DNA from: Oscillospiraceae bacterium
GTDB lineage: Bacteria; Bacillota; Clostridia; Oscillospirales; Oscillospiraceae
Assembly (NCBI GenBank): GCA_963642815.1
Contig: CAVIIB010000011.1
Coordinates: 21,934-36,178, forward strand
Direction: 5' to 3'
DNA length: 14,245 nt
In this document: in pieces, positions 1,011 to 14,245 of the stretch
Layout of the letters: each line of letters starts with the position of its first letter
How positions within the stretch are numbered: the first letter of the stretch is position 1
Position numbers and translations under genes: made by a program
Notes under the pieces: model-generated
Seen by the model: the letters and a program-made list of their open reading frames with translations, nothing else
Told to the model about the DNA's origin: nothing
Databases searched by the model: none

Positions 1011-1451
1011 ATGCTCTCCACGACGTTTATGCTCCTCGTCTCCGGCGCATTTCTCATGCTGCGCTTGGGCGAGACTGCCGGCTCGTTTCCGCGTCCGCTC
1101 CCGGCCAAGGAGGAGCGCCGCTGCGTCGAGGCGTGGCTGGCGGGGGACACGCAGGCGCGGAACAAGCTCATCGAGCATAACCTGCGGCTGGTCGTACATA
1201 TCGTCAAGAAATACTACGCCGCCTCCGCCGACGCGGAGGATCTCATCTCCATCGGCACCGTCGGTCTCATCAAGGGCGTATCGAGCTACCGCCCCGAAAA
1301 AAACGTCCGCCTCGCCACCTATGCGTCGAGGTGTATAGAAAATGCTATACTATCGAAACGGAAGAATCGGCGGCTGAGGTGGTGGAACGGGTGTCTTTTG
1401 AGGCAAAATGGCGCCTGCTGGCGAGAGTGGGAGTCCGCTGCTATATTCTGA
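1011..1451 (+). CDS. sigK: RNA polymerase sporulation sigma factor SigK, 5' segment only (spoIVCB-like); interrupted after codon 111
   Basis: ATG 1011 is preceded by AAGGGGG (996-1002). [111 protein letters not shown] matches B. subtilis pro-SigK along its length (..[67 protein letters not shown]..). After N111 (nt 1341-1343) the frame reads [19 protein letters not shown]... to a stop at 1449-1451, with no sigma regions 3/4. The track start at 912 is an upstream extension without an RBS. Confidence 0.85.
1333..1350. repeat. attL-like inverted repeat at the sigK break point
   Basis: GTATAG (1333-1338) and CTATAC (1345-1350) form a perfect 6-bp inverted repeat around AAAATG (1339-1344). SigK similarity ends at 1343/1344, inside the central spacer. 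Confidence 0.5.
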
Positions 1452-1687
1452 TTTCCAATGTATCGGGTGCGGTAAAAGCAGCTCCTCTCCAAATTCTTCA
1501 ATTTCCGGTGATACTGCCGCACAAGCTTCAGGAAGCGGAAAAGTTCAATTTGCAGTTCTCGGACTTTGCGGAAATCACCGAAACGGCGGACACGCTAGGT
1601 GTCAGTCTTGGCAGTCTCAAGCAGTGGGAACAAAACCGCAAGCAGATATTCAAATCCACGTGGGAGAAGTATTTCAAGCAGGCATAA
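1391..1687 (+). CDS. Small helix-turn-helix (XRE-like) DNA-binding protein; start uncertain
   Basis: The C-terminal part [30 protein letters not shown] has the FAxxLGVSxxTLxxWEQGRR HTH pattern. GTG 1391 has GAGGTG (1376-1381) 9 nt upstream. The track start at 1331 lies in the host sigK part and is unlikely. Alternative starts are GTG 1508 and TTG 1550. A terminator follows immediately. Confidence 0.45.
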
Positions 1688-1694
1688 CCATAGC

Positions 1695-1735
1695 AAACGG
1701 GCAGACCAGCCTTAAAAGCCGGTCTGCCCGTTTTT
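1695..1735. terminator. Rho-independent terminator shared by convergent genes
   Basis: A 13-bp stem AAACGGGCAGACC (1695-1707) / GGTCTGCCCGTTT (1721-1733) is followed by TT(TTT) on the + strand. The stop codon of the minus-strand 68-aa ORF lies inside the hairpin. Confidence 0.75.
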
Positions 1736-1918
1736 CGTATGTATCACTTGCCCCTTCAGATGCCTTGCCGCCGCGTCCACCAGCTCCAGCTTCTGCTCCG
1801 TGGAGCAGGGCAGCTTCTGGACATTTTTCAGCACCTGCTCGGACTGGAACTTCGCCAGCTCCTGTGCAAGCTCCTGCTTTGCCTGCCGGGACTTGGGGAA
1901 AATCAAAAATACTTCCAT
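1712..1918 (-). CDS. Hypothetical small protein (68 aa), coiled-coil-like and Lys/Glu/Gln-rich
   Basis: There is a strong SD: the minus strand reads GGAAAGGAGGGCAGCG-ATG, with AAGGAGG 6 nt from the ATG. The ORF ends in the shared terminator. No family recognised. Confidence 0.55.
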   Translation of the reverse strand: MEVFLIFPKSRQAKQELAQELAKFQSEQVLKNVQKLPCSTEQKLELVDAAARHLKGQVIHTKNGQTGF

Positions 1919-2034
1919 CGCTGCCCTCCTTTCCAGAGCATTTGCTGTTTCAATCTATGTCTGATTTGTAGAGTATATGTAAAGTTGCCTCTTTCTGATG
2001 GGGGTTATAGGGGGCAAACGCCCCCTCAAATTTG

Positions 2035-2052
2035 AATTGGGATATCCCAATT
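2035..2052. repeat. Perfect 18-bp palindrome AATTGGGATATCCCAATT (candidate operator)
   Basis: Read directly from the sequence. It is flanked by a GC hairpin AGGGGGC-aaac-GCCCCCT (2009-2026) and an imperfect palindrome AAGGTAACGG-tg-CCGTTTCCTT (2062-2083). It lies 90-165 nt upstream of the minus-strand 68-aa gene. Confidence 0.5.
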
Positions 2053-2220
2053 TGTTGCTTGAAGGTAACGGTGCCGTTTCCTTTCCTGTCCTGCGTCTCA
2101 CTCCGCAGAGTTTTTCCACTTCGGCCACATCATCGTTGGTACTGCACAGCGGCCAGCAGAAGCAGGAGATGCGCCGAATCGTCGGGCATGAGATGGTGGT
2201 TGACATAATACATGGCGGAG

Positions 2221-2253
2221 GAAAAACAAAGAGGCCCCACACCGGAGCCTCTT
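2221..2253 (-). terminator. Minus-strand rho-independent terminator-like hairpin with no obvious upstream gene
   Basis: The stem AAGAGGC (2229-2235) / GCCTCTT (2247-2253) is followed on the minus strand by TTGTTTTTC (complement of 2221-2228). Confidence 0.4.
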
Positions 2254-2365
2254 GGCGTTTAATATTTACGATGTATATGGCTTCTGCGCGGGCACCGGCT
2301 ACGGCACTATAGACAAGGCATGGGTAGGAAGATAGGCAGAGGTACTTTTCCTGCTTCCTGAGTAT

Positions 2366-2400
2366 AAATCCCTTAATACAGGCATAATAGTAAGGGATTT
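2366..2400. repeat. 10-bp perfect inverted repeat AAATCCCTTA / TAAGGGATTT with a 15-nt loop
   Basis: Read directly from the sequence. It sits just upstream of the fic promoter. A related TCCCTTA/TAAGGGA pair brackets the -10 region (2421-2450). Confidence 0.45.
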
Positions 2401-2413
2401 ATGGCACAGCCCA

Positions 2414-2442
2414 TTGACTATTCCCTTATTTTATATTATTAT
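2414..2442 (+). promoter_or_regulatory. SigmaA-type promoter for fic
   Basis: TTGACT (2414-2419), a 17-nt spacer, then TATTAT (2437-2442). The RBS GGAGGTG (2458-2464) lies 6 nt before ATG 2471. Confidence 0.5.
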
Positions 2443-2470
2443 TTAAGGGAAAACGAATGGAGGTGAGGGA

Positions 2471-3517
2471 ATGAGAACCTTCAATTACTCCGCAATCAAG
2501 GAACAAAAGTGGGACGCGGATATTCTTGGTCTGATTGCAGCCATATACAAGGAAGCCGGCAAGCAGGAACTGTATTTGAAGCAGCGCCCGGAGGAACTTG
2601 AAAAGCTCGTGGAGATTGCCAAGATACAGAGCACCGAGGCATCGAATGCCATCGAGGGCATCGTCACCACGAGTACCCGAATCCGGCAGCTCGTCGAGGA
2701 GAAAACCACGCCGAGAAACCGTGACGAGCAGGAAATTGCCGGATATCGCGATGTGCTGAGTATCATTCACGAGAGCTTTGACGCGATACCAATTACGCAG
2801 AACTACATTCTGCAGCTTCACAAAATCCTGTACAGCCACATGAACAACCCACTTGCGGGCCGCACCAAAGCTACGCAGAATTATATCACTGCCACCTACC
2901 CGGACGGTCATGTGGAAACGCTGTTCACCCCGCTTGCCCCTTATGAAACGCCGGAAGCGCTGGAGAGAATCTGCGAGGAATACAATCGAGTGATTGGCAA
3001 CATGGAACTGGAGCCGTTGATTGCGATCCCGGTTTTCATCCATGACTTTTTGTGCATCCACCCCTTCAATGACGGAAACGGAAGAATGAGTAGATTGCTC
3101 ACGACGCTGCTTCTGTACCGAAATGGTTTTTATGTTGGAAAGTACATCTCCCTTGAAGCTAAAATCGCCAAAAACAAGGATCTGTACTACGACGCACTTG
3201 CACAGGCGCAAACCGGCTGGCACGAAGGCACAGAAGATGTAGTGCCATTCATCAAGTACCTGCTCGGGACGATCCTTGCGGCATATAAGGACTTCGAGGA
3301 TCGTGTAGCGCTTGTGGAAACCAAGCTGCCCGCACTGGAAATGGTGCGCAGAGCAAGCAAAAACAGAATCGGGCGGTTCAACAAACAGGATATCCGAGAG
3401 CTTTGCCCGACGCTCAGTGACAGTTCCATTGAGGGGGCCCTCCGCAAACTGGTCGCAGCCGGTGAACTGAAGAAAGAAGGAAGAGGGAAAAATACCCGTT
3501 ACTTCAGGCTAAATTAA
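2471..3517 (+). CDS. fic: Fic family protein (class II, N-terminal inhibitory helix, C-terminal winged-helix-like domain)
   Basis: The Fic motif HPFNDGNGRMSR (nt 3059-3094) fits HxFx(D/E)GNGRxxR. The inhibitory motif SNAIEG (nt 2642-2659) fits (S/T)xxxE(G/N). The gene has a strong RBS and its own promoter and terminator. Confidence 0.9.
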   Translation: MRTFNYSAIKEQKWDADILGLIAAIYKEAGKQELYLKQRPEELEKLVEIAKIQSTEASNAIEGIVTTSTRIRQLVEEKTTPRNRDEQEIAGYRDVLSIIHESFDAIPITQNYILQLHKILYSHMNNPLAGRTKATQNYITATYPDGHVETLFTPLAPYETPEALERICEEYNRVIGNMELEPLIAIPVFIHDFLCIHPFNDGNGRMSRLLTTLLLYRNGFYVGKYISLEAKIAKNKDLYYDALAQAQTGWHEGTEDVVPFIKYLLGTILAAYKDFEDRVALVETKLPALEMVRRASKNRIGRFNKQDIRELCPTLSDSSIEGALRKLVAAGELKKEGRGKNTRYFRLN

Positions 3518-3545
3518 GAGCGCGACAAAGAGCAAAAAATAGCAG

Positions 3546-3917
3546 TCATTCAATATCAGAACGTGGCGGAATATCCGCGAAACCTTGCATGACAAAACCG
3601 TCGCCCCGACCGAAAATCGGGGCGGCGGTTTTATGCAGGGGAGAAAAGGGTCGCATTTGAGGCATGACAAGTAAGATGGGTTGCCGCTGGATAATCATTG
3701 TCTGCGGGTGTTTTTCCGGGATGGCGCGGTAAATTTCGTTGTCGGTGTAATTTTTATCTCTGAAGCTGTGGGTAACAAGCAGTCCCGTATCTGCCATGTA
3801 GCATTTTTGCGTGGTATTGTTCCGTTGTGAGAGCAATATGCGCCTGTATTCAACTTTGTAATATTGTCGGTGCGTTATTTCAATTTTACAAGTACGCGGC
3901 TGAATGATATTCTTTTG
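3546..3917 (-). pseudogene. Possible remnant of an AAA+ ATPase (DUF4143-type) gene
   Basis: The minus frame is open from 3917 to 3546. The upstream part ...YKVEYRRILLSQRNNTTQKCYMADTGLLVTHSF... resembles the KxYxxDTGLL segment of DUF4143 ATPases (from memory). There is no N-terminal ATPase domain and no RBS, and the frame runs through the fic terminator. Confidence 0.25.
3597..3632. terminator. Rho-independent terminator after fic (bidirectional-looking)
   Basis: A 13-bp stem ACCGTCGCCCCGA (3597-3609) / TCGGGGCGGCGGT (3617-3629, one G-T pair) is followed by TTT on the + strand. AAAA precedes it, which gives a T-run on the minus strand. Confidence 0.75.
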
Positions 3918-3935
3918 TCATAGATAATGACAAAA
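3913..3935. promoter_or_regulatory. Inverted repeat TTTTGTCAT-agata-ATGACAAAA, candidate operator upstream of the LysR gene
   Basis: Perfect 9-bp arms sit in the AT-rich 3837-4035 intergenic region, about 100 nt upstream of ATG 4036. The dyad is compatible with LTTR-type T-N11-A sites. Confidence 0.35.
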
Positions 3936-4035
3936 TGCACAAATGGAATAAAAAAGAATCTAAAATTCTTGTTGAAAACACCGTGTTGCTTGTTGTATTG
4001 TGTGTAGGACAAGACAATAAGAAAGGTGTGTAGTC

Positions 4036-4911
4036 ATGACTTTCAATCAGCTGAATTACTTCATTACAGTTGCAAGAAATCTGAGCTTCTCCCGTGCGGC
4101 TGAATTACTTTTTGTAACACAGTCCACGCTGAGCCGCAGCATCGCATCTATGGAAAGCGAATTGGGGGTCACATTATTCGACCGTGTTTATCACAATCTG
4201 AAGCTGACACCGGCAGGCGAGCTTATGCTTCGAGATGGCGTAAAGATCATGGATAGTATGAATTCCTTAATCGGGAGGATGCAGTCCATGGAGGAAAGTA
4301 AAAAGAAGCGCCTGACCATTGGCATTCTGGACGGGCAAAAGGTCGAAACAAGGGTTTTGCTTGCCGTCAAGCGAATATTGGAGGATATTCCGGAGTTTGG
4401 CATTGATATACGCCGGATGGACTATGAAACGGCTATACAGGGCGTTTCGGAGTCAAAGCTGGATGTCGTGCAAACCCTGATGTCCGCAGACACGGTGCTA
4501 GAGGACAGCGTTGACCAAATTCTTATAGAAGATGAGAGCTACTATTTGGTAGCCAGCAACGACGATCCGATCTGGCAGGAGTGGAACCAATCATCGCTGT
4601 CTGTGCTGGATAAGAAAGTGCTGCTGATGTCCCATGCGTATCCGGGGAATGACGACCTTCTTAAAAAGCTTTCCGACGCGGGAATCCTCTCAAGAGTAAA
4701 GGTCGTGCCCGACATGGAGACGCTTTCCCTTTGGCTCGAAGCAGGTATGGGCGTTTCTATATGCAATGCCAGCCATGTTACGTGCAGCTCTGGCGTAAAA
4801 AGATCCGTGCGGGCAGAGTGTCTGGACACACTTCCCAAAGCTCCAGTGGCCTTGCTTTGGAATAAAAACAATCTGTCTTCGCTGTTGGAGCTGTTCCTGT
4901 CATATATGTAA
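4036..4911 (+). CDS. LysR-family transcriptional regulator
   Basis: The N-terminal HTH MTFNQLNYFITVARNLSFSRAAELLFVTQSTLSRSIASMESELGVTLFDR is canonical for LTTRs. At 291 aa, the rest is a C-terminal substrate-binding-type domain. Confidence 0.9.
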   Translation: MTFNQLNYFITVARNLSFSRAAELLFVTQSTLSRSIASMESELGVTLFDRVYHNLKLTPAGELMLRDGVKIMDSMNSLIGRMQSMEESKKKRLTIGILDGQKVETRVLLAVKRILEDIPEFGIDIRRMDYETAIQGVSESKLDVVQTLMSADTVLEDSVDQILIEDESYYLVASNDDPIWQEWNQSSLSVLDKKVLLMSHAYPGNDDLLKKLSDAGILSRVKVVPDMETLSLWLEAGMGVSICNASHVTCSSGVKRSVRAECLDTLPKAPVALLWNKNNLSSLLELFLSYM

Positions 4912-4925
4912 GAAGCGAGATCTGC

Positions 4926-4954
4926 TTGCAAACCGGCACAGCACATAGGATTAT
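4926..4954 (+). promoter_or_regulatory. Candidate promoter of the oxidoreductase/ABC operon
   Basis: TTGCAA (4926-4931), a 17-nt spacer, then GATTAT (4949-4954), in the 80-nt gap between the LysR gene and the flavoprotein gene. Confidence 0.3.
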
Positions 4955-5006
4955 TGGTGGCAGGATGCCATTGATGATAAATAAACGATAGTTGGAGGTA
5001 AAGGCA

Positions 5007-6791
5007 TTGGACAAAGTAATCAAGGCTGATGTGCTGGTTATCGGCGGCGGTCAAGCCGGGTGGTTCGCGGCCATGAAGGCCCAGGAGCACGGTGCGAAGG
5101 TCGTCCTTGCGGATAAGGGCTATGCCGGAAAATCCGGTCAGTCACAGAACATCACCTGCATGGTGTATTTTGACCCGGAAAAGAACGATCTGAACAAATG
5201 GATTGAAGAGGGTGCCATCGCGGATGAGTGGCTCGAAAACCGCGACTGGGTTGAAACGGTCTATCTGGAAAGCAAGGCACGCTGGGACGACATGGCTCGC
5301 TGGGGAATGGTGTCCTGGCGCTACGATAAGAACGGCGATGCGTATCAAGCGCCGATCAACGGCTCTGACGATGAGCGCTGCCCCGGAGACCCTGAGGAGG
5401 ATCGTATTACAAATTACCTCATTGACAACCGCTATCACTACAAGCTGCGTCCTGTGTTCGAGAAGATCGGCGGCACGATCATCGACCGAATCATGATCAC
5501 CGACCTCATCAAGCAGGATGGGCGTATTGCGGGTGCCATCGGCTTCCGGGCGGACGAGGAGGACACTACATACATCTTCCATGTACCCGCCGTTGTGCTG
5601 GCTTGCGGCGCTGGTGGCATGAAGACGGCGGGCATCCGCACCACGACTACCACGGGCGACGCGCAGGCCATGGCTTACCGCATTGGCTGTGCAGTCACCG
5701 GTAAGGAATTTTCCGACCAGCACGGCGCTCGCGGCGATTTCCCGGCCTATCCATGGACGGGCAACGACCGCAACCCCTATTATCCGAAATACGATGAGAC
5801 CGTAAAGACGCTGGCGGAGCATCTGCCTCTTTACAACATCTATGAGCAGAAGGTCGACTGCAACCGTCCTAATCTGGAGCACCAGCACATTCTGCCTTTC
5901 AACGCGCTGGCGATGGCATGGGAAGCGCACTGCGGACGTGGCCCTGTGTTCTATAAGGTGGACGGCAATCCCGACACAGCGCCCATCAACCACAATCCGA
6001 GCGACAAGCCACGGGAAGAGGTCGATGAGGAATTCATGAAAAAGGGCATGGTTCGTATGTCCATCGGACGCGCCCTTGGTCAGTCCTATACCTTGGCCGA
6101 CGGCGTCTGGTCGGACGGACTGGAGTGCGAGACACAGGTTCCCGGCCTGTACGCCACCGGCGACTGCCTTGGTGCAAGGACAGGCTATCCCATGGCCGGG
6201 TTTGCAGCAGCCTTCACGGCTGTGTCCGGCTCTCGCGCCGGTATCAACGCCGCAGAATATGCGCAGAAATCCGGCGATTATGAACTCGATTCTAACGAGG
6301 TGGAGCGGCTAAAGAATACACTCTGGGCACCCATGAATCGGATCGGTGGCTTTACGCCCCGCTGGGCGATCCAGGTGATCCAAGACGCCTATCTTCCGTA
6401 CTGGATCTCCCTATATAAGAATGAGGAGCGGCTACAGGCAGCTCTGACAAATCTTCTATTCATCAGGGATAACATCATCCCCCAGCTCAAGGTCTACAAC
6501 AACCATGATCTGCGGCTGGCGCACGAGGCTCGGAACATCATTCTCCATATGGAGATGAAGATCCGTGCGGCTCTGATGCGCAAGGAAAGCCGCTGGTATC
6601 ACTACCGAGAGGATTACCCCCTGCGTGACGACGAAAACTGGCTTTGCTGGATAAAGATTCAGGATGTGAACGGCGAAATGACCTTTACTAAGATTCCGGT
6701 GCCTGAGAAGTGGCACCCCGATCACTCCCTGCCCTACAAGGAGCGCTATCCGATCCAGTTCCCCAATGAACCGGCTGTCCTGCCGAACTAA
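5007..6791 (+). CDS. FAD-dependent oxidoreductase, succinate dehydrogenase / fumarate reductase / APS reductase (AprA)-like flavoprotein
   Basis: It has an N-terminal Rossmann motif DVLVIGGGQAGWFAAMKAQEHGAKVVLADKG, a distal FAD motif YATGDCLGARTG, and a C-terminal RKESRWYHYREDYPLRDDENW typical of the FrdA/SdhA/NadB/AprA capping region. The likely start is TTG 5007, with GGAGG at 4994-4998 (8 nt upstream); the track start TTG 4992 overlaps that RBS. Confidence 0.85.
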   Translation: MDKVIKADVLVIGGGQAGWFAAMKAQEHGAKVVLADKGYAGKSGQSQNITCMVYFDPEKNDLNKWIEEGAIADEWLENRDWVETVYLESKARWDDMARWGMVSWRYDKNGDAYQAPINGSDDERCPGDPEEDRITNYLIDNRYHYKLRPVFEKIGGTIIDRIMITDLIKQDGRIAGAIGFRADEEDTTYIFHVPAVVLACGAGGMKTAGIRTTTTTGDAQAMAYRIGCAVTGKEFSDQHGARGDFPAYPWTGNDRNPYYPKYDETVKTLAEHLPLYNIYEQKVDCNRPNLEHQHILPFNALAMAWEAHCGRGPVFYKVDGNPDTAPINHNPSDKPREEVDEEFMKKGMVRMSIGRALGQSYTLADGVWSDGLECETQVPGLYATGDCLGARTGYPMAGFAAAFTAVSGSRAGINAAEYAQKSGDYELDSNEVERLKNTLWAPMNRIGGFTPRWAIQVIQDAYLPYWISLYKNEERLQAALTNLLFIRDNIIPQLKVYNNHDLRLAHEARNIILHMEMKIRAALMRKESRWYHYREDYPLRDDENWLCWIKIQDVNGEMTFTKIPVPEKWHPDHSLPYKERYPIQFPNEPAVLPN

Positions 6792-6805
6792 AGAGAGGTG
6801 TAAAC

Positions 6806-7024
6806 ATGGCTATTGAGAGAATCGACCTTGGGAAATGTGTGGGCTGCGGCACCTGCCGAAATGTTTGCAGCTGTGATGTTATCCGGCTCGACGACAAGGG
6901 TATGCCCTATATCAAATATAAGGACGAGTGCTGTGTGTGCCTGTACTGCATGGAGGATTGCCCCACGGGCGCGATCTATGTAGCGCCGGAGAAATATCTG
7001 AAGCAGAAAAACGCCTGGGGCTGA
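6806..7024 (+). CDS. 2x[4Fe-4S] ferredoxin (72 aa)
   Basis: Two cluster motifs are present: CVGCGTCRNVC and CVCLYCMEDCP. The RBS AGAGGTG lies 5 nt upstream, and the gene starts 14 nt after the flavoprotein stop. Confidence 0.85.
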   Translation: MAIERIDLGKCVGCGTCRNVCSCDVIRLDDKGMPYIKYKDECCVCLYCMEDCPTGAIYVAPEKYLKQKNAWG

Positions 7025-7071
7025 CATAAGCGCAGGATGTGACCCATACCCCACCATGATAACGAAAAAAT

Positions 7072-7096
7072 GGTGTCCACCGGGATGCTGGACACC
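7072..7096. other. Intra-operon stem-loop GGTGTCCA-ccgggatgc-TGGACACC
   Basis: An 8-bp stem sits between the ferredoxin and SBP genes, flanked by A-runs on the + strand, so it is not a + strand terminator. It may be an mRNA processing or stability element. Confidence 0.35.
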
Positions 7097-7126
7097 AAAA
7101 ATAAAACAGAAAGTTGAGGTATTGCA

Positions 7127-8743
7127 ATGAAAAAGACCCTATCGCTCCTTCTGGCTCTTGTGCTTTGCCTTGGTATGCTGACCGCCTGTGGCAGCAGTGA
7201 GCCAGTGGAAGAAGACAGCGCAGCGGTGACCGAAGCGGTCAAGGAGGAAACCGTCTTGGAGGTGGAGGCTGCCGCAGTTCCCGAAGGCAAGACAGACCTT
7301 GTTGTGGGCGGCTTTACGGACACCACATCCTTTGATCCCTTGTCGGAGACCAATGACACGAGCATCATGATCGGCCTCTGTGTGTTCGACAACCTCTTCA
7401 CCCTGAACGACGACGGAAGTTTTAATTACCAGCTTGCCGAAAATGCGGAGTGGGTCGAGAATGACGGCGCATGGTCCGTTGTGATCACGCTGAAACCGGG
7501 GATCAAGTTCCATTCTGGGGACGAGCTTTCCTGTGAGGATGTGCTTTTTACCTTGCAGCGTATGTCCGACAACTTCATGTACAGCAGCCGCGTCTCAGCT
7601 GCCAACTTTGATGAGGCGGTCATCGACGGAAACACGCTCACCATTCCCATGCATCGGTATGATGCTCGCTTCCTGCCTAATCTGACCAGTGAGCTCGGCT
7701 ATATTCTGAACAAGAGCTACGTTGAGGAGGTCGGCGATGAGAAGGCCTTCCAGCAGCCCGACGGCACCGGCCCGTATGTCTTTACGAAGTGGGTCACCAA
7801 CGAATCCGTCACGCTCACCCGCAACGAGGAATACTGGGGCGATGCCGGAGCGTTTGAGACGATCGTCTACAAATTCTTCTCCGATGACAACACGAGAGTT
7901 CTGGAGTTTGAGGCCGGCAATCTGGACATCTGCGCCGTGGAATCCGGCGAAAATCTGGACAGCCTCGCGGCTGGTGATTATGAGGGCTGCGGCCTGTATA
8001 CATGGCTGACAAACAAGATGGGTATGCTGTTCTTCAACAACAGCACGGAGAGTTCGCCTTTCTATGAGAACCCCGCACTGCGCAAGGCAGTGGCCGCAGC
8101 CATTGACCTGGAAGCAATCGTTGAGTCCATGGGCGGCTCCACTACGGTCGCTGCGACCTCCTCGTTGCCCACCAGCGCTGCCGCCTATGCGGAGCATCTG
8201 AATGTCTATGACCCTGAGCTTGCCAAGCAGTATCTGGAGGAAGCGGGCTATCCGAACGGCTTCTCTTTCACCTTTATGGTCGCTTCCGATCAGGGCTCCA
8301 ACCTAAAAATGGCGGAGGCTATCCAGGCATATCTGAGCCAGGTTGGCATCGAAATGACGATCGAACCGCTGGATCTCGGCACGCTCATGGGCTATCAGAT
8401 GAGCGGCGAACAGGTCTGCGGCATCGTGGATAACACCATCCGCGGCGATGACTATGAGATGTATCAGAACCAGGAGCTCGGCTCCGGCAACAAGCTTACG
8501 GAGATCCACAATGATGATTATCAGGCTCTGCTCAGCAGCATCCTCTCCGAGCGGGATCATGATACTCGTATCAAGCTGTTCCAGGAGATTCAGGACACGG
8601 TCTATGACCAGTGCTACTTTGTGCCGCTGTATCAGAACCGTGGCGCGTGGGCCTATCAGGACTATGTGACCGGTCTAGATGAAAACGGCGTTCTCACAGC
8701 GGAGAAAATCGTGGACTTTGCTGCGCTCGGCTTTGTCAAGTAA
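7127..8743 (+). CDS. ABC transporter substrate-binding lipoprotein, family 5 (Opp/Dpp/Nik type)
   Basis: The signal peptide carries the lipobox MKKTLSLLLALVLCLGMLTA-C. Family-5 hallmarks are present (..LAENAEWVENDGAWSVVITLKPGIKFHSGDELSCEDVLFTLQRM..). The RBS GAGGT lies 6 nt upstream. Confidence 0.9.
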   Translation: MKKTLSLLLALVLCLGMLTACGSSEPVEEDSAAVTEAVKEETVLEVEAAAVPEGKTDLVVGGFTDTTSFDPLSETNDTSIMIGLCVFDNLFTLNDDGSFNYQLAENAEWVENDGAWSVVITLKPGIKFHSGDELSCEDVLFTLQRMSDNFMYSSRVSAANFDEAVIDGNTLTIPMHRYDARFLPNLTSELGYILNKSYVEEVGDEKAFQQPDGTGPYVFTKWVTNESVTLTRNEEYWGDAGAFETIVYKFFSDDNTRVLEFEAGNLDICAVESGENLDSLAAGDYEGCGLYTWLTNKMGMLFFNNSTESSPFYENPALRKAVAAAIDLEAIVESMGGSTTVAATSSLPTSAAAYAEHLNVYDPELAKQYLEEAGYPNGFSFTFMVASDQGSNLKMAEAIQAYLSQVGIEMTIEPLDLGTLMGYQMSGEQVCGIVDNTIRGDDYEMYQNQELGSGNKLTEIHNDDYQALLSSILSERDHDTRIKLFQEIQDTVYDQCYFVPLYQNRGAWAYQDYVTGLDENGVLTAEKIVDFAALGFVK

Positions 8744-8756
8744 TTTACACCGCAAC

Positions 8757-8782
8757 CAAGGGGCGTTTTACGACGCCCCTTG
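8757..8782 (+). terminator. Stem-loop after the SBP gene (attenuator/stabiliser; no T-tract)
   Basis: A 10-bp stem CAAGGGGCGT / ACGCCCCTTG with loop TTTACG lies 14 nt after the stop. The lack of a U-run suggests partial termination or 3' end protection, as is common after SBP genes. Confidence 0.4.
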
Positions 8783-8841
8783 CCTTGCATGGTGTCCTCA
8801 TCCTGTTACGGCGTTTTTGTGAACAGACAAGGAGATTCTCG

Positions 8842-9900
8842 ATGATCAAATACACAATAAAACGGCTTCTGCTGATGATCCCTATACTGCTTGGGGTAAT
8901 TCTTGTCGTTTTCACCATCAATTATTTTTCCACCGGCTCACCGGCTATGGCGCTGCTGGGCAGCGCGGCGACACCGGAGAACATCGCGTCGGTCGAACAT
9001 GAGCTGGGTCTGGATCGTCCCTATTTTGTCCAGCTGGGAGAGTATTTGTGGAATATTATCACCAAGTTCGATCTTGGAAACTCCTATGCGTATAAGCGGC
9101 CAGTGATCGAAATGATCGGCGAGGTGGTCGGAAAAACCGTCGCGCTGGGTCTTTTGGGGACGGCTTTATGTATATTGATCGGCGTACCGCTGGGCATATT
9201 TGCGGCAACAAAGCAATACTCCGTCATTGACTATATCTCCACGATCTTCGCGACACTTCTGGCGGCGCTTCCCAGCTTTTGGCTTGCGCTTATGCTTATG
9301 CTCTTGTTCTCGGTAAAGCTGGGATGGCTACCGATATCGGGTCTGGACGGGCCGCTGAGCTATATTCTGCCGGTGCTGTCGATCGGTGCGTTCCCAGTGG
9401 CGATGATCACCCGCATGACCCGTTCGTCCATGCTAGAGGTCATCCGTCAGGACTACATCGTGACGGCGAAAGCCAAGGGACTGCCATCTTCCGTCGTTAT
9501 TTTCCGCCATGCCATGAGAAACGGCATGATCCCGGTCGTGACCATGATCGGTGTGAGCGCCGGCCTCGCTATGACCGGCACTATCATCATCGAGACGATC
9601 TTCAACATACCGGGCATGGGTATGCTGATGAACTCCGCCATCAATAAATACGACTATCTTCTCACACAGGGTGTCGTCCTCATCTGCGCCATCATCATCT
9701 GTGGGACAAATCTCCTGACTGATCTGGTGTATGCGCTCATTGACCCAAGGATCCGGGAGCAGTATGCGAATTCCGCCCGCCATGCCGGAGGGCGTCTGGC
9801 GGCAAAGAAAAAGAAGCGTGAGATCCAAGAAGAAGCCGCAGAGGCTGTATCACGGCAGCCCTTACAGAGCGATGAGGCGGGAGGGGAAAACGATGGCTAA
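8842..9900 (+). CDS. ABC transporter permease (DppB/OppB type) with a hydrophilic C-terminal tail
   Basis: ATG 8842 (MIKYTIKRLLLMIPILLGV...) has GGAG 7 nt upstream; the track start 8785 is an extension. The protein has the usual ..DPRIR ending, followed by a 47-aa charged tail. Confidence 0.9.
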   Translation: MIKYTIKRLLLMIPILLGVILVVFTINYFSTGSPAMALLGSAATPENIASVEHELGLDRPYFVQLGEYLWNIITKFDLGNSYAYKRPVIEMIGEVVGKTVALGLLGTALCILIGVPLGIFAATKQYSVIDYISTIFATLLAALPSFWLALMLMLLFSVKLGWLPISGLDGPLSYILPVLSIGAFPVAMITRMTRSSMLEVIRQDYIVTAKAKGLPSSVVIFRHAMRNGMIPVVTMIGVSAGLAMTGTIIIETIFNIPGMGMLMNSAINKYDYLLTQGVVLICAIIICGTNLLTDLVYALIDPRIREQYANSARHAGGRLAAKKKKREIQEEAAEAVSRQPLQSDEAGGENDG

Positions 9901-10792
9901 GACCAAGCAAGAAAGCTGCGCCCTTGTAAAACAGGAGGCGAGCGATACCAAGAAGCGCTCCCAGGCAGAGGAGACATGGCGTGGACTGAAAAAGAACAAG
10001 CTTGCCATGGTGTCGCTGGCGTTTATCATTGTTTTGGTGCTTTCCTGCGCCTGTGCCGACTGGCTGGCGCCATACGATTATGATAAGATCGATCTCTCCG
10101 CCCGTATGCAGCTTCCCAGCTGGGAGCATTTGATGGGTACGGATGATTTTGGACGGGATATTTTCTCCCGCATACTTTACGGAGGCAGGGTCTCTCTGCT
10201 GGTGGCTCTGTGTACGGTCGCAGCCAGCATTGTGATCTCCACTATTCTGGGTGCGACTGCCGGTTATTTTGGCGGCTGGTATGATAACCTTGTCATGCGG
10301 CTGACCGATGTATTTATGGCGATCCCCGGTATGCTCCTTTCTATTTCCGTCTGCGCGGCTCTTGGCTCCGGCATTGTGAATACCGGCATCGCCATGACCG
10401 TCTGCAATATTCCGAGCCTGACCCGTGTGGTGCGCTCCTCAACGCTGCTGCTCCGCGATCAGGAATACATCGAGGCGGCTACTTCCTTCGGCGCAGGGCG
10501 GTGGCATATTATCAAACGCCACATCATCCCCAATATTCTGGCGCCTATCATCGTGCAGTCGTCTCTGAAACTCGGTGATGCCATTCTGTCTATCGCGGGA
10601 CTGAGCTTCATCGGTTTGGGGATACAGCCGCCGACACCGGAATGGGGCTCCATGCTCAATAGCGGCAGGGAGTTCATCCGTTCCTTCTGGCCGCTCATTA
10701 CCTTCCCCGGTATCATGATCGCGCTCACCATGCTTGCCTTTAACCTACTGGGAGACGGACTGCGGGATGCCATGGATCCCCGGCTCAAGTGA
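9893..10792 (+). CDS. ABC transporter permease (DppC/OppC type)
   Basis: ATG 9893 (MAKTKQES...) has GGAGGGG upstream and overlaps the upstream stop (ATGGCTAA). The C-terminus ..LLGDGLRDAMDPRLK is typical. The track start 9731 overlaps the previous gene by 170 nt and is unlikely. Confidence 0.9.
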   Translation: MAKTKQESCALVKQEASDTKKRSQAEETWRGLKKNKLAMVSLAFIIVLVLSCACADWLAPYDYDKIDLSARMQLPSWEHLMGTDDFGRDIFSRILYGGRVSLLVALCTVAASIVISTILGATAGYFGGWYDNLVMRLTDVFMAIPGMLLSISVCAALGSGIVNTGIAMTVCNIPSLTRVVRSSTLLLRDQEYIEAATSFGAGRWHIIKRHIIPNILAPIIVQSSLKLGDAILSIAGLSFIGLGIQPPTPEWGSMLNSGREFIRSFWPLITFPGIMIALTMLAFNLLGDGLRDAMDPRLK

Positions 10793-10804
10793 GGAGGGAC
10801 GAAG

Positions 10805-11782
10805 ATGAATAAGCTGCTGGAAGTCAAAAATCTAGTCGTTGAATACAAGACCGATGAGAGCATAATACACGCGGTCAACGGTGTGAGCTTTGCTGTTGAG
10901 GAGGGTAAGGTTTTGGGCATTGTCGGCGAGACAGGTGCCGGAAAGACTACGACCTGCAAAAGCATACTGAGGCTCATATCGGAGATCAACGGAAAGATCA
11001 AAGAGGGCGAGATCCTTTATAGAGGCATGGACATTCTCAAAATGTCCGATGTCGAGATGGGAAAGATCCGGGGCGGAGAGATATCCATGATTTTTCAGGA
11101 TCCGATGACAGCGCTGAATCCGATCATGACCGTGGGAAAACAGATCGGAGAGATCATACGCCGCCATCAAAAGTGCTCGCGGGCGGAGACAGAGCTCCGG
11201 GTCGCGGAGATGCTGGAGCGCGTGGGTATCAGCCGGGAGAGAGCCTCGGACTATCCCCACCAGTTCTCCGGCGGCATGAAGCAGCGTGTGGTGATTGCGA
11301 TGGCGCTTGCGTGCAATCCATCCCTGCTGCTGGCGGACGAGCCGACGACGGCGCTGGATGTCACCATTCAGGCACAAATGCTTGAGATGATAAAACGTCT
11401 TCAGGAGGAATATCATACAGCTATGATCCTTATTACCCATGATTTGGGGATCGTGGCAGAGACCTGTGATTATGTGGGGATCATGTACGCTGGCGAGATC
11501 GTGGAGTTCGGCTCTGCCCAGCACATTTTCGAGAATGCGCGACATCCCTACACGCAAGGATTATTTAACGCTATTCCAAGCATTGACAAGCGCGTGAAGC
11601 GTCTGGCGGTCATTCCGGGGCTTGTGCCGGATCCGTCAGACCTGCCGGAGGGGTGCAGGTTTAGCCCCCGCTGCGGCTGCCATACCGGCGTATGCAGCGA
11701 GTGCTGCCCCAGCTATGAAGAGGTGGAGCAGGGACATTTGGTGAAATGCTTCCATGCTTGGAAAGGAAAGGACGGAGAATGA
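10805..11782 (+). CDS. ABC transporter ATP-binding protein (OppD/DppD type)
   Basis: It has Walker [10 protein letters not shown], signature FSGGMKQR, Walker [14 protein letters not shown]-loop ITHDL, and an oligopeptide-type C-terminal domain with a Cys cluster. The RBS GGAGGG lies upstream. Confidence 0.9.
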
Positions 11783-12729
11783 CCATGAGCTCGATTTTGA
11801 CTGTAAAGCATCTAAAGAAACACTTCAATTCAGCTCACGGTATCATTCACGCAGTTGAAGATATTTCCTTTGATGTAGAGGAGCGCACAACGCTGGGAGT
11901 TGTGGGAGAATCCGGCTGCGGAAAATCCACGCTCGGCAGAATGATCGTCGGACTTTCAGAACCTACCGATGGCGAGGTGAGCTTTGACGGCGTGAATATC
12001 ACTAGTCTGAAAAAGAGGGAGCGCAGCGAATTTCGCAGGAAAATGCAGATGGTATTCCAGGACCCGTCCTCCAGCCTTGATCCCCGTATGTCCGTTCACG
12101 ACCTTATTGAGGAACCGCTGGTGGTAGCTAAGACCTGCCGGACGTCGGCGGAGAGAACGGCCAGAGTGCGGCAGATGATGGACACGGTGGGGCTGGCCTC
12201 GCGATTTGAGTACTCATATTCTCATGAGCTGGACGGTGGCCGGCGGCAGCGCATCGGTATTGCGCGGGCACTGGTGCTCAATCCGCAGTTTATCGTCTGC
12301 GACGAGCCGGTTTCGGCGCTGGATGTGTCCATTCAAGCACAGATCCTGAATCTTTTACAGGATCTGCAGGATGAGCTTGGCCTTACCTATCTGTTTATCA
12401 CCCACGATCTGGCGGTGGTGAATCATATCTCCGACTCCATTCTGGTCATGTATATGGGAGCGGCGGTGGAAATGGCCCCGGTGGACGAGCTTTTCAAGAA
12501 CCCGAAGCACCCGTATACGCACGGTTTGCTTTCAGCCATTCCCATTCCCAAGCTGCGGCCTGAGCGCAAACGCTTTTTGCTGCAAGGGGAAGTCACGAAG
12601 CCGGATGGGAAGCCCGGATGCAAATTCGCCCCGCGCTGTCCCAAGGCGTCAGAGGAATGCTTCTCCGTGACACCACAGCTGCAAAGCGTGGGCGAGCAGC
12701 ACCGCGTGGCCTGCCACCACATCGAGTAA
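11779..12729 (+). CDS. ABC transporter ATP-binding protein (OppF/DppF type)
   Basis: It has Walker A GESGCGKST, Walker B FIVCDEPVSALD and H-loop ITHDL; the signature reads LDGGRRQR (atypical). ATG 11779 overlaps the upstream TGA (ATGA). ATG 11785, with GGAG 7 nt upstream, is an equally good start. Confidence 0.9.
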   Translation: MTMSSILTVKHLKKHFNSAHGIIHAVEDISFDVEERTTLGVVGESGCGKSTLGRMIVGLSEPTDGEVSFDGVNITSLKKRERSEFRRKMQMVFQDPSSSLDPRMSVHDLIEEPLVVAKTCRTSAERTARVRQMMDTVGLASRFEYSYSHELDGGRRQRIGIARALVLNPQFIVCDEPVSALDVSIQAQILNLLQDLQDELGLTYLFITHDLAVVNHISDSILVMYMGAAVEMAPVDELFKNPKHPYTHGLLSAIPIPKLRPERKRFLLQGEVTKPDGKPGCKFAPRCPKASEECFSVTPQLQSVGEQHRVACHHIE

Positions 12730-12782
12730 ACGCGAGTTTATTTGCATGAGCGCTGCGCTCAAAAATGTATCATTTGGGGCAC

Positions 12783-12876
12783 AAAGCCTCTGCTTTTTCC
12801 TCTCCGACCGCCGCAAGTAGGCGGGGTTGGTGTTTTCCAATGGAACACACCTGTGAGGCAAAGCAGAGGCTTTTTT
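12783..12876 (+). terminator. Compound terminator / three-way structured element after the ABC operon
   Basis: A perfect 14-bp outer stem AAAGCCTCTGCTTT (12783-12796) / AAAGCAGAGGCTTT (12860-12873) is followed by TTT. It encloses two inner hairpins: CCGACCGCC..GGCGGGGTTGG and the near-palindrome GGTGTTTTCCAATGGAACACACC. Confidence 0.6.
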
Positions 12877-12955
12877 CGTGGAAACCAACATTTTTCAAAA
12901 GCAAAAAAAGAGAACGCTTTTCTCGGAAATATTTTCGGATTCTTCCCTTGACACC

Positions 12956-12984
12956 TTTTCAAATGGATTCCAAACCGTTATAAT
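12956..12984 (+). promoter_or_regulatory. Candidate promoter of the recombinase gene
   Basis: A perfect TATAAT (12979-12984) has a weak -35 TTTTCA 17 nt upstream (12956-12961). A perfect TTGACA at 12948-12953 is 25 nt away, which is too far. Confidence 0.3.
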
Positions 12985-13021
12985 ATATCTACCAACCTAA
13001 CAAATAACGCGAGGTGTCGCT

Positions 13022-14245
13022 ATGAAAACGAAAGACAAGCCGCAGGCGAAGCAATACGTCATTTATTCCCGCAAATCCAAATTTACCGGCAAGGGCGAGA
13101 GTATTGAAAACCAGATCGAGCTTTGCCGCCAGTATATTGCCATGCACTTTGGCGAGGACGCGGCGGAAAACGCGCTGGTGTATGAGGACGAGGGCTTTTC
13201 CGGCGGCAATCTGGAGCGCCCGCAGTTCAAGAAAATGATGAAGGACTCGCAGAAGATCGAATTTGCGGCCATCGTGGTCTACCGTCTCGACCGTATCAGC
13301 CGCAACATCGGTGACTTTGTAAAGCTCATTGAAGACTTGGGCGACCGGCATATTGACTTCATTTCCGTCCGGGAGCAATTCGATACGTCCTCTCCCATGG
13401 GGCGGGCGATGATGTATATTGCATCGGTGTTCTCCCAGCTGGAGCGGGAGACCATTGCCGAGCGCATCCGGGACAACATGCACGAGCTGTCCAAGACCGG
13501 GCGCTGGCTTGGTGGCACGACGCCCACGGGCTACGCCTCGGAAAGCCTGTCCAGCGTGACAGTGGACGGCAAGGTGAAGAAGGCTTGCAAGCTCAAGCCC
13601 ATTCCGGAGGAAATTCAGCTTGTCAAGATGATTTTCTCTGTATTTATGGAGACCGGCTCTCTCAGCAAGACCGATCAGTACCTGTTGGAGCACCGCTGCG
13701 TCACGAAGCGCGGCAAGCAGTTCACGCGATTTGCCATCCGGGGCATTCTGACCAATCCGGTCTACATGATTGCCGACGAGACGGCGTATCAGTATTTGAA
13801 AGAAAACAATGTTGACCTGTCTGCCGAACGCTCGGAGTTTGACGGCGAACACGGCATTATGGCATATAATCGTACCCTCCAGCGCCCCGGAAAGGCGAAC
13901 CAGATCCGTCCGATGGAGGAATGGATCGTGGCGGTGGGCAAGCATCCCGGCATCATCGCTGGCAGCGACTGGGTGCAGGTGCAGGCCATGCTGGATGTAA
14001 ACAAATCCAAGAGCTACCGCAGACCGCGCAGCAATGTGGCGCTGCTGTCCGGCCTGCTGCGGTGCGGCGAATGCGGCGATTATATGCGCCCGAAGCTGAC
14101 CAACCGCCGCACGGCGGACGGCGAACTGATCTACACCTACATGTGCTCCACCAAGGAGCGCAGCCACAGCACGGTCTGCGGCATGAAAAACTGCAACGGC
14201 AACACGCTGGACGCCAAGATCATCGAGGAGATCCGCAAGCTGTCC
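13022..14245 (+). CDS. Large serine recombinase (SpoIVCA/TndX-like), N-terminal 408 codons; 3' end outside window
   Basis: I translated this frame by hand: ATG 13022 (GAGGTG 5 nt upstream) stays open through 14245 with no stop, so it is absent from the track. Resolvase-domain motifs are present: YVIYSRKSKF (catalytic Ser), VVYRLDRISRN, and SVREQFDTSSPMGRAMMYIASVFSQLERETIAERIRD. These are followed by a recombinase domain (GRWLGGTTPTGY) and a zinc ribbon (LLRCGECGDYM...YMCSTKERSHSTVCG). Confidence 0.9.
   Translation, partial: MKTKDKPQAKQYVIYSRKSKFTGKGESIENQIELCRQYIAMHFGEDAAENALVYEDEGFSGGNLERPQFKKMMKDSQKIEFAAIVVYRLDRISRNIGDFVKLIEDLGDRHIDFISVREQFDTSSPMGRAMMYIASVFSQLERETIAERIRDNMHELSKTGRWLGGTTPTGYASESLSSVTVDGKVKKACKLKPIPEEIQLVKMIFSVFMETGSLSKTDQYLLEHRCVTKRGKQFTRFAIRGILTNPVYMIADETAYQYLKENNVDLSAERSEFDGEHGIMAYNRTLQRPGKANQIRPMEEWIVAVGKHPGIIAGSDWVQVQAMLDVNKSKSYRRPRSNVALLSGLLRCGECGDYMRPKLTNRRTADGELIYTYMCSTKERSHSTVCGMKNCNGNTLDAKIIEEIRKLS

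Follow-up and report, generated by a model that had tools for sequence, protein, structure and literature searches.

Here, we describe a 14,245-nucleotide (nt) stretch of DNA, hereafter the window, from an Oscillospiraceae bacterium (GenBank assembly GCA_963642815.1, contig CAVIIB010000011.1, positions 21,934 to 36,178). The gene for a large serine recombinase (LSR) begins near its right edge, and close to its left end lies the 5′ half of sigK, broken within an asparagine codon. Between the two are the remnant of an XRE-type regulatory gene, a small conserved open reading frame (ORF) on the opposite strand, and an island of metabolic genes (Table 1). Comparison with related loci suggests that these features belong to a skin-like integrative element of about 13.4 kb (window position 1343 to approximately 14735), which interrupts sigK and which the LSR probably excises during development.

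Table 1. Features of the window (positions counted from its first base; aa, amino acids; HTH, helix-turn-helix; RDF, recombination directionality factor)
Feature	Position	Strand	Basis
sigK 5′ half: pro-sigma-K N-terminus, region 2, first two bases of the CIEN Asn codon	1011..1342	+	NCBIfam SigK
attL: host arm ...TGTATAGAA, crossover AA at 1341-1342, element arm TGCTATACTATCG	1320..1365	+	Junction comparison
XRE-type HTH gene remnant, GTG start, left element end	1391..1687	+	Homology to loci L017 and L176
Hairpin separating the convergent XRE remnant and small ORF; arms of 19 nt, 89% complementary	1695..1733		Inverted repeat I9
Conserved small ORF, 68 aa, isoelectric point (pI) 9.3, GGAGG ribosome-binding site; candidate RDF	1712..1918	-	Conservation, position, size, promoter motif
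Sigma-E-like promoter motif ATA-N16-CATAGATT upstream of the small ORF	1952..1978	-	Motif scan
Cargo of the element (metabolic island)	1982..12741	+	Pfam
Fic	2471-3517		Pfam
LysR	4036-4911		Pfam
Flavoprotein (flavin adenine dinucleotide), fumarate-reductase-like	4992-6791		Pfam
Opp-type binding protein	7127-8743		Pfam
Opp-type permeases	8785-9900 and 9731-10792		Pfam
Opp-type ATPases	10805-11782 and 11746-12729		Pfam
Conserved right-end leader: hairpin, sigma-A-like promoter, ribosome-binding site	12742..13021	+	Similarity to relatives begins at 12742
LSR gene, first 408 of approximately 571 codons	13022..14245	+	Domains, purifying selection; the window end cuts the ORF
Non-gene: 392-aa antisense shadow ORF of the LSR gene	12989..14167	-	No family match, substitution pattern, stops in relatives

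A preliminary description of this DNA had claimed that the forward frame from ATG 13022 is uninterrupted to the last base and carries the hallmarks of an LSR. Translation bears out the first point (408 codons, with zero stops up to the last base of the window); the gene is missing from the ORF list because that listing leaves out ORFs running off the window end. The hallmarks were also found when the translation was searched with hidden Markov models. Three Pfam domains, each scoring well above its cut-off, follow one another in order, namely, Resolvase (PF00239; residues 13 to 162, E = 6e-34), Recombinase (PF07508; residues 195 to 325, E = 1e-18, above cut-off), and Zn_ribbon_recom (PF13408; residues 341 to 405, E = 2e-12, above cut-off), and PHROG 95, annotated as "integrase," matches at E = 1e-95. 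By sequence, the nearest solved structure is the catalytic domain of the TP901-1 integrase. Ser19 of the LSR aligns with Ser12, the nucleophile of that enzyme, and the LSR also has the R/D/SG and LDRxSR motifs. A ribosome-binding site (GAGGTG, 13011 to 13016) lies 5 nt 5′ of the start codon and is kept in 30 relatives. Full-length relatives with 92 to 98% identity are 569 to 571 aa long and contain a heptad-like stretch past residue 408. Up to that residue the window copy is intact, being 97 to 98% identical to full-length relatives with overwhelmingly synonymous differences. The best-scoring named LSR models in NCBIfam are XisF and CcrB, and the protein falls below the equivalog cut-offs of all those compared (XisF, 123 versus 375 bits; CcrB, 131 versus 900; CcrC, 104 versus 900; CcrA, 68 versus 700). 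The closest phage LSR (Clostridium phage HM T) is 40% identical and the closest plasmid LSR (a Ruminococcus albus plasmid) 47%, and no transfer vehicle was identified in the phage and plasmid collections.

The minus-strand ORF that overlaps this gene had been dismissed in the same description as an antisense shadow, and here too our results agree. It has no match in Pfam or NCBIfam, and its composition is rich in L, A, V, R, and G. When the LSR region was compared with 10 relatives, 1,192 of the 1,430 nucleotide differences (83%) fell on position 3 of the forward codons; protein identity was 92 to 98% in the forward frame versus 57 to 82% in the minus frame, and the latter contained one to three stops in 6 of the 10 relatives. 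Because the differences gather at forward third positions, the forward frame is the better kept of the two, and the minus frame is interrupted in relatives, we reject the minus ORF as a real gene. The G+C content at third codon positions of the LSR gene is 78%. Judged by this pattern of substitutions, the LSR gene is real, conserved, and under purifying selection.

The claim that the LSR is a candidate for the enzyme that reconstitutes sigK gained support from the other end of the window. The sigK fragment there matches two NCBIfam SigK models over positions 2 to 119 of 227 and 4 to 121 of 235; the match ends at ...RCIEN, while ORF 912-1451, of which it is part (product P0241, 146 aa), continues into element DNA and stops at 1451. 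The gene is broken at the Asn codon of CIEN^EILM (the caret marks the junction), with AA at 1341 to 1342 as the crossover dinucleotide; the break made by the skin element of Bacillus subtilis is, we believe, also near CIENEILM. The left junction in the window reads TGTATAGAAAA^TGCTATACTATCG, and the form ...GAAAA^TGCTAT(A/T)CT recurs in loci L017, L030, L065, and L066, as well as at a secondary site in L016. The exchanged bases could be narrowed to the AA of the Asn codon because of two variants: L014, which has GAA^CGAAATT because AAC encodes Asn in its sigK, and L010, which has GAAT^TT at a non-sigK site. The reconstructed attP attachment site is GATAGCGAATGCTATAC, an inverted repeat (ATAGC-GAAT-GCTAT) centred on AA; the attP and attB junctions predicted for excision are GAGGATAGCGAATGCTATACTATCG and TGTATAGAAAATGARATYCTSATG, respectively. 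At the right junction, the relatives invariably read GAGGATAGCGAA^TGAR-ATY-CTS-ATG. Their final four LSR codons (E-D-S-E) form the element-side arm of attR and the TGA stop comes from sigK (aaT GAr). Given the position of the junction, therefore, the LSR stop codon is host encoded and E-D-S-E doubles as an attR arm; where the LSR adjoins a different site or a further element, its ORF extends to 600 to 667 aa. In at least one relative (L001, P0074), the LSR has a C-terminal deletion and is fused in frame to sigK, the N terminus being missing in the gene call.

Composites of the two sigK halves were joined at AA, using the same-genome halves of L030 and of L066 and the 5′ half from the window with the 3′ half from L003. 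Each matched NCBIfam SigK as one stretch over positions 2 to 226 of 227. They scored 254 to 291 bits against a cut-off of 252 for NF004471 (SigK), above SigE, and fell slightly short of the TIGR02846 equivalog (248 to 280 versus a cut-off of 298.65). Joining the halves at AA therefore restores a full-length SigK sequence. Moreover, the best 120 homologues of the sigK 5′ half (54 to 100% identity) are 109 to 187 aa long and contain Sigma70_r2 only, with none of them full length. From these homologues, a split sigK seems to be the rule in this clade rather than a strain-level variant.

To place the LSR among its relatives, one genome per species was scanned, which yielded 80 loci with 64 to 98% full-length LSR identity; 74 of these had enough flanking sequence to judge, and cultured isolates and one complete genome are among them. 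Gut metagenomes hold thousands of near-identical relatives. The hosts include Oscillibacter, Dysosmobacter, Flintibacter, Pseudoflavonifractor, Intestinimonas, Flavonifractor, Ruthenibacterium, Anaeromassilibacillus, Faecalibacterium, and many metagenome-assembled genomes; isolates that carry the element include Oscillibacter sp. MSJ-31, Dysosmobacter segnis BX15, and Flintibacter faecis BX5. The 3′ half of sigK directly follows the LSR in 65 of the evaluable loci, always at the CIEN Asn codon. In three others (L061, L062, and L071, with approximately 66% LSR identity), the 5′ half of sigK lies on the opposite strand within about 300 nt 3′ of the LSR; that is, the element is inserted in sigK in inverse orientation, which is also how spoIVCA is oriented relative to spoIVCB in B. 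subtilis. Among 16 loci, the median identity was 95.6% for the LSR versus 51.8% for the adjacent sigK 3′ half. As the LSR is so much more conserved than the gene it interrupts, the comparison argues for an active unit that moves horizontally.

DNA similarity between the window and the 80 related loci is limited to two blocks, 1334 to 1981 and 12742 to 14245, which correspond to the two ends of a common plan. Loci in which both ends are visible carry, in order, the sigK 5′ half, an XRE-type HTH gene, the opposite-strand small ORF, variable cargo, the leader and LSR, and the sigK 3′ half; this layout recurs with different cargo in L017, L168 to L175, and L176 to L178. The XRE homologue in L017 is 195 aa and matches HTH_31 and HTH_3 in Pfam, and the window copy has no Pfam match. 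It has suffered an internal deletion of approximately 257 nt (949 to 1596 and 1586 to 1681 align to L176 around the gap), and compared with L176 the window lacks another ~350 nt. The hairpin that follows it looks like a bidirectional terminator. The cargo has no DNA similarity to any of the 80 related loci, and the best relative of its second ATPase among metagenome contigs is 59% identical. It includes a complete five-gene Opp-type peptide/nickel ABC transporter and a Fic protein that matches PHROG 5978 (E = 5e-82). Metabolic cargo of this kind is unusual for a skin-type element. Elsewhere in the family, the cargo comprises MobC/NikA, RepA_N, and Cys_rich_VLP modules, AAA_14/AIPR/AbiEii defence-like genes, or sortase/pilin clusters, and in L168 to L175 an M20 peptidase with a symporter. 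GC content is homogeneous across the element junctions.

We considered whether the LSR frame might cross attP in the excised circle and enter the left-end XRE ORF, giving a state-dependent C terminus. The frame across attP is open in the window (1343 to 1687), L016 (142 to 570), and L017 (3827 to 4440), adding 114 to 203 residues. In L030, L065, and L066 it closes after 28 to 39 aa, and in L168 and L169 the XRE ORF is in a different frame. We rejected this idea, regarding the open frames as incidental.

The preliminary description had also pointed to 12880 to 13020, upstream of the LSR gene, as a place where a mother-cell promoter or SpoIIID box might lie. Neither was found; the conserved promoter there is sigma-A-like (TTTTCA-17-TATAAT, 12956 to 12984, from a promoter scan), and the leader as a whole (12742 to 13021) has no sigma-E-like, sigma-K-like, or SpoIIID-like (WWRRACARNY) match. 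Mother-cell control of the LSR promoter was therefore rejected, given this lack of a motif and the fact that the GACA present in the window is not kept in relatives. The last ~90 nt 5′ of the LSR, promoter included, are kept in 30 loci. Further upstream, between the last cargo gene and the promoter, positions 12783 to 12876 can form a three-way-junction hairpin followed by a U-run (-49.9 kcal/mol, z = -4.15), which is common to L003, L004, L009, L012, L023, and L028 and is probably an insulating terminator. A search of Rfam returned three sub-threshold chance matches in the window, none of them at this hairpin. Most relatives carry an 11-bp inverted repeat (GCATCGCTCAT-N25-ATGAGCGATGC) approximately 200 nt 5′ of the LSR start. 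Of this repeat, which is interrupted by the cargo junction at 12742, only the right arm (12742 to 12765) is left in the window.

The opposite end of the element carries the small ORF that we propose as the RDF. It has homologues in L017, L065, L066, and L168 to L178, where they occupy the sigK-5′ end of the element, and in L022 to L029, where they are found at other places within it. There are 597 homologous clusters, one of them on at least 1,000 contigs, making this a large family without annotation; the window copy has no match in Pfam or PHROG. The ORF accompanies sigK-inserted elements, including divergent members of the family, and is absent from the non-sigK copy L016. Across both strands of the whole window, the sigma-E-like motif upstream is the only strict match to ATA-N15-17-CATAnAnT. 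The ACATA and CATAGATT boxes of this motif are kept in the window, L017, and L168, and the 14-nt spacer between them is fixed in length and variable in sequence. We propose this 68-aa protein as the candidate RDF because the arrangement matches that of Clostridioides difficile, in which a sigma-A-expressed LSR is paired with a small factor under sigma-E control.

Taken together, these observations lead us to conclude, with a probability of roughly 80%, that the ORF at the right edge of the window encodes the LSR of a sigK-intervening, skin-like integrative element that is developmentally excised under RDF control. By analogy with established LSR biochemistry, an LSR dimer would bind each of attL and attR, and the synapsed tetramer would cut at AA, rotate its subunits, and religate the ends. 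Excision would then yield a circle of approximately 13.4 kb carrying attP (GAGGATAGCGAATGCTATACTATCG) together with an intact sigK, and insertion would be the reverse reaction between attP and attB. Control may resemble that in C. difficile. The LSR would be made from its sigma-A-like promoter, and excision would be gated by the 68-aa factor, expressed in the mother cell from the sigma-E-like promoter. If excision is confined to the mother cell in this way, then the spore genome would retain the element and its cargo.

Several points weigh against this conclusion. For this genome, the sigK 3′ half and the final ~163 codons of the LSR fall outside the window, and their presence is predicted from relatives. 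Neither attB nor attP, the products of excision, was observed. In 6 of the 74 evaluable loci, the flanks are other than sigK. The RDF role is drawn from conservation, position, size, and a promoter motif only, no similarity between the small ORF and Skr, CD1234, or any family could be detected, and the promoters, being consensus matches, are predicted. Finally, the family also occurs in Faecalibacterium, and not every copy need serve development. In Faecalibacterium prausnitzii APC923/61-1 (L011, 10001 to 12050), a 97%-identical LSR adjoins a divergent sigK-like 3′ fragment (45% identity, NELRMHF...). F. prausnitzii is not known to sporulate, and the fragment may be what is left of a sigK that now serves only for docking.

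The presence of the element in this F. prausnitzii isolate also fits an alternative in which the LSR is a mere integrase of a mobile element that happens to land in sigK, its excision having no tie to sporulation and sigK often being inactivated. The sigma-A-like LSR promoter, the MobC/NikA, RepA_N, and Cys_rich_VLP genes and pilus/sortase cargo of relatives, the conservation of the LSR far above that of host sigK, and the secondary non-sigK sites in L010, L016, and L023 all sit comfortably with this explanation. Nevertheless, we consider it unlikely. Insertion always leaves a seamlessly rejoinable sigK, and since the best 120 homologues of the sigK 5′ half are all reduced to region 2, any spore-former in this clade would need excision. 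Moreover, the small ORF and its sigma-E-like promoter accompany the sigK-inserted elements and are lacking from the non-sigK copy L016. The two explanations are in any case compatible, given that the integrase of a mobile element can also be a developmental excisase.

It could instead be that the window copy is a decayed or immobilized relic, with an LSR that is disrupted past the window or lacks a working partner and with sigK permanently split. The deletion in the XRE gene and the further loss relative to L176, the truncated and fused LSR of L001, and the fact that the right end of the element lies beyond the window lend this some weight. We regard it as very unlikely, since the 408 visible codons are intact, as are the promoter, ribosome-binding site, attL, and small ORF, and the codons differ from full-length relatives overwhelmingly at synonymous positions. 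Far-fetched by comparison is the notion that the LSR belongs to a separate element starting at about 12742, with 1982 to 12741 being ordinary chromosome and the sigK 5′ fragment and 640-bp left end an unrelated remnant or an assembly join: the restriction of similarity to the two end blocks and the lack of mobile-element hallmarks in the cargo other than Fic would fit, but a conserved left module, variable cargo, and a conserved LSR module are the standard plan of the family, L168 to L175 also carry metabolic cargo, GC content does not shift at the junctions, and no second att-like site was seen near 12742.

Skin-type elements with an edge LSR beside spoIIIC are already established (PMC5025042, PMC6957869, bioRxiv 10.1101/2022.02.25.481979), and the developmental reading of the window places its element among them. 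The closest parallel is skinCd of C. difficile, a 14.6-kb element that splits sigK and encodes the LSR CD1231 and the RDF CD1234; CD1231 is expressed from a sigma-A promoter and alone can integrate, while excision is gated by the 72-aa CD1234, whose expression depends on sigma-E and SpoIIID (PMC5025042). The element described here shares with skinCd its approximate size, the splitting of sigK, a sigma-A-type LSR promoter, and a small candidate factor with a sigma-E-like promoter motif. However, the candidate factor is basic, whereas CD1234 is acidic, and no similarity between the two was detected; in this family the cargo can be metabolic, as in the window, and the LSR stop codon is host encoded. 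In B. subtilis, skinBs is a 48-kb defective prophage encoding SpoIVCA and the 64-aa RDF Skr (PMC6957869, citing Stragier 1989 and Sato 1990); spoIVCA and skr overlap and are cotranscribed from a sigma-E promoter, and skinBs and skinCd occupy different sites in sigK (PMC6957869). As in skinBs, the LSR lies at the edge of a sigK-intervening element with a small (candidate) RDF, and excision would rejoin spoIVCB-like and spoIIIC-like halves. Unlike in skinBs, the LSR promoter looks vegetative, and the candidate RDF is encoded on the other strand at the opposite end.

Beyond these two, 15 skin elements of 2.6 to 48 kb have been catalogued across the Firmicutes and treated as scattered cases; spoIVCA is always at the element edge, mostly directly 5′ of spoIIIC, and no other genes are common to them (bioRxiv 10.1101/2022.02.25.481979). 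In contrast, among Oscillospiraceae and their allies we find at least 65 species-level genomes with one LSR family (64 to 98% identity) at the same codon, and this family has a conserved two-ended backbone. The SprA/SprB system of SPbeta likewise pairs an LSR with a small RDF in a developmentally timed excision, which rebuilds the mother-cell gene spsM (PMC5499854); its target gene differs, and SPbeta is an active phage. The LSR of the window is 25% identical to SprA, and its match to PDB entry 9dxh covers residues 60 to 249 only. XisF of the Anabaena fdxN element is another developmental excisase, although the window LSR is not a member of XisF or of CcrB (SCCmec). Within the limited literature that we searched, we found no paper on this LSR family or on a doubly split sigK. 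As far as can be read from the genomes compared, several features of the family appear to go beyond that literature: one sigK codon is occupied across many genera, swappable cargo sits in a two-ended backbone, the stop codon is host encoded, elements stack in tandem, sigK is split a second, independent time, and the best 120 homologues of the sigK 5′ half are all truncated.

In some relatives, the 3′ part of sigK is itself split again, after ISRSYVSR^IEKRAL in region 4.2 (L020, 11994 to 20530; L022, 12000 to 20660; L024, 12000 to 20800). The second element is approximately 8.5 kb long and encodes an LSR of its own, which in L020 has 525 aa and shares about 22% identity with the first, and the core CTATGTRTCSCGC is found at both of its junctions; lying as it does within the 3′ part, it leaves sigK in three pieces. 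Only the left junction of this split was seen in L008, L014, L017, L025, L078, and L079. In L014 (Dysosmobacter sp. Sow4_B12; 3124 to 4747 and 10001 to 12014), the opposite strand carries, upstream of the first LSR, both the second LSR and the last piece of sigK, an arrangement that suggests an inversion between the two elements.

Extended LSR ORFs (600 to 667 aa) were seen in L163 (9696 to 11318; P0008, 667 aa) and in L169, L170, and L175 (6186 to 8412). In such cases the right end abuts not sigK but a P′-like arm of another element (GAA^TGCTATCCTC or TGCTATGCTAAC), which indicates tandem stacking of related LSR elements. One stacked case adds TnpV, BlaR1/BlaI-like, and MobA genes, and in L163 a degenerate inverted LSR copy comes next. 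Separately, a 34-nt unit occurs in three direct copies (two identical and one 82%) at positions 666 to 834 of the window, spaced by 67 to 68 nt; missed by Tandem Repeats Finder, the copies lie inside an unannotated ORF (637 to 888) just 5′ of the sigK 5′ half.

A broader, albeit tentative, possibility is that the Asn codon of CIEN^EILM is a lineage-wide docking port in gut Oscillospiraceae and their allies. Horizontally exchanged two-ended cassettes might occupy this port, with a near-universal split of sigK and with sporulation needing one to several gated excisions. We would not yet wager on it. If it were true, the docked cassette would read attL-XRE-small factor ... promoter-LSR-attR, with its stop codon taken from sigK and with swappable cargo such as metabolic operons, defence genes, or pili. 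Such cassettes would stack in tandem and co-occur with the second, unrelated LSR element that splits sigK after ISRSYVSR, and their cargo would be carried in the spore genome and lost from the mother cell.

For annotation, the consequences are immediate: the recombinase should be entered as a real gene and the 392-aa minus ORF dropped, and the short "sigma-70 family" ORF at 912-1451 should be read as half of sigK and not as a pseudogene. The window exemplifies what is a very common skin-type family in gut Oscillospiraceae, one undescribed in the literature that we searched, and its element offers a crossover dinucleotide and a candidate RDF along with predicted att sites, all of them directly testable. 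If the family is active, it would bear on whether this LSR and its att sites could be used as a compact site-specific integration tool and, for the organisms themselves, on the control of sporulation in these anaerobes and on the movement of metabolic and defence cargo among them.

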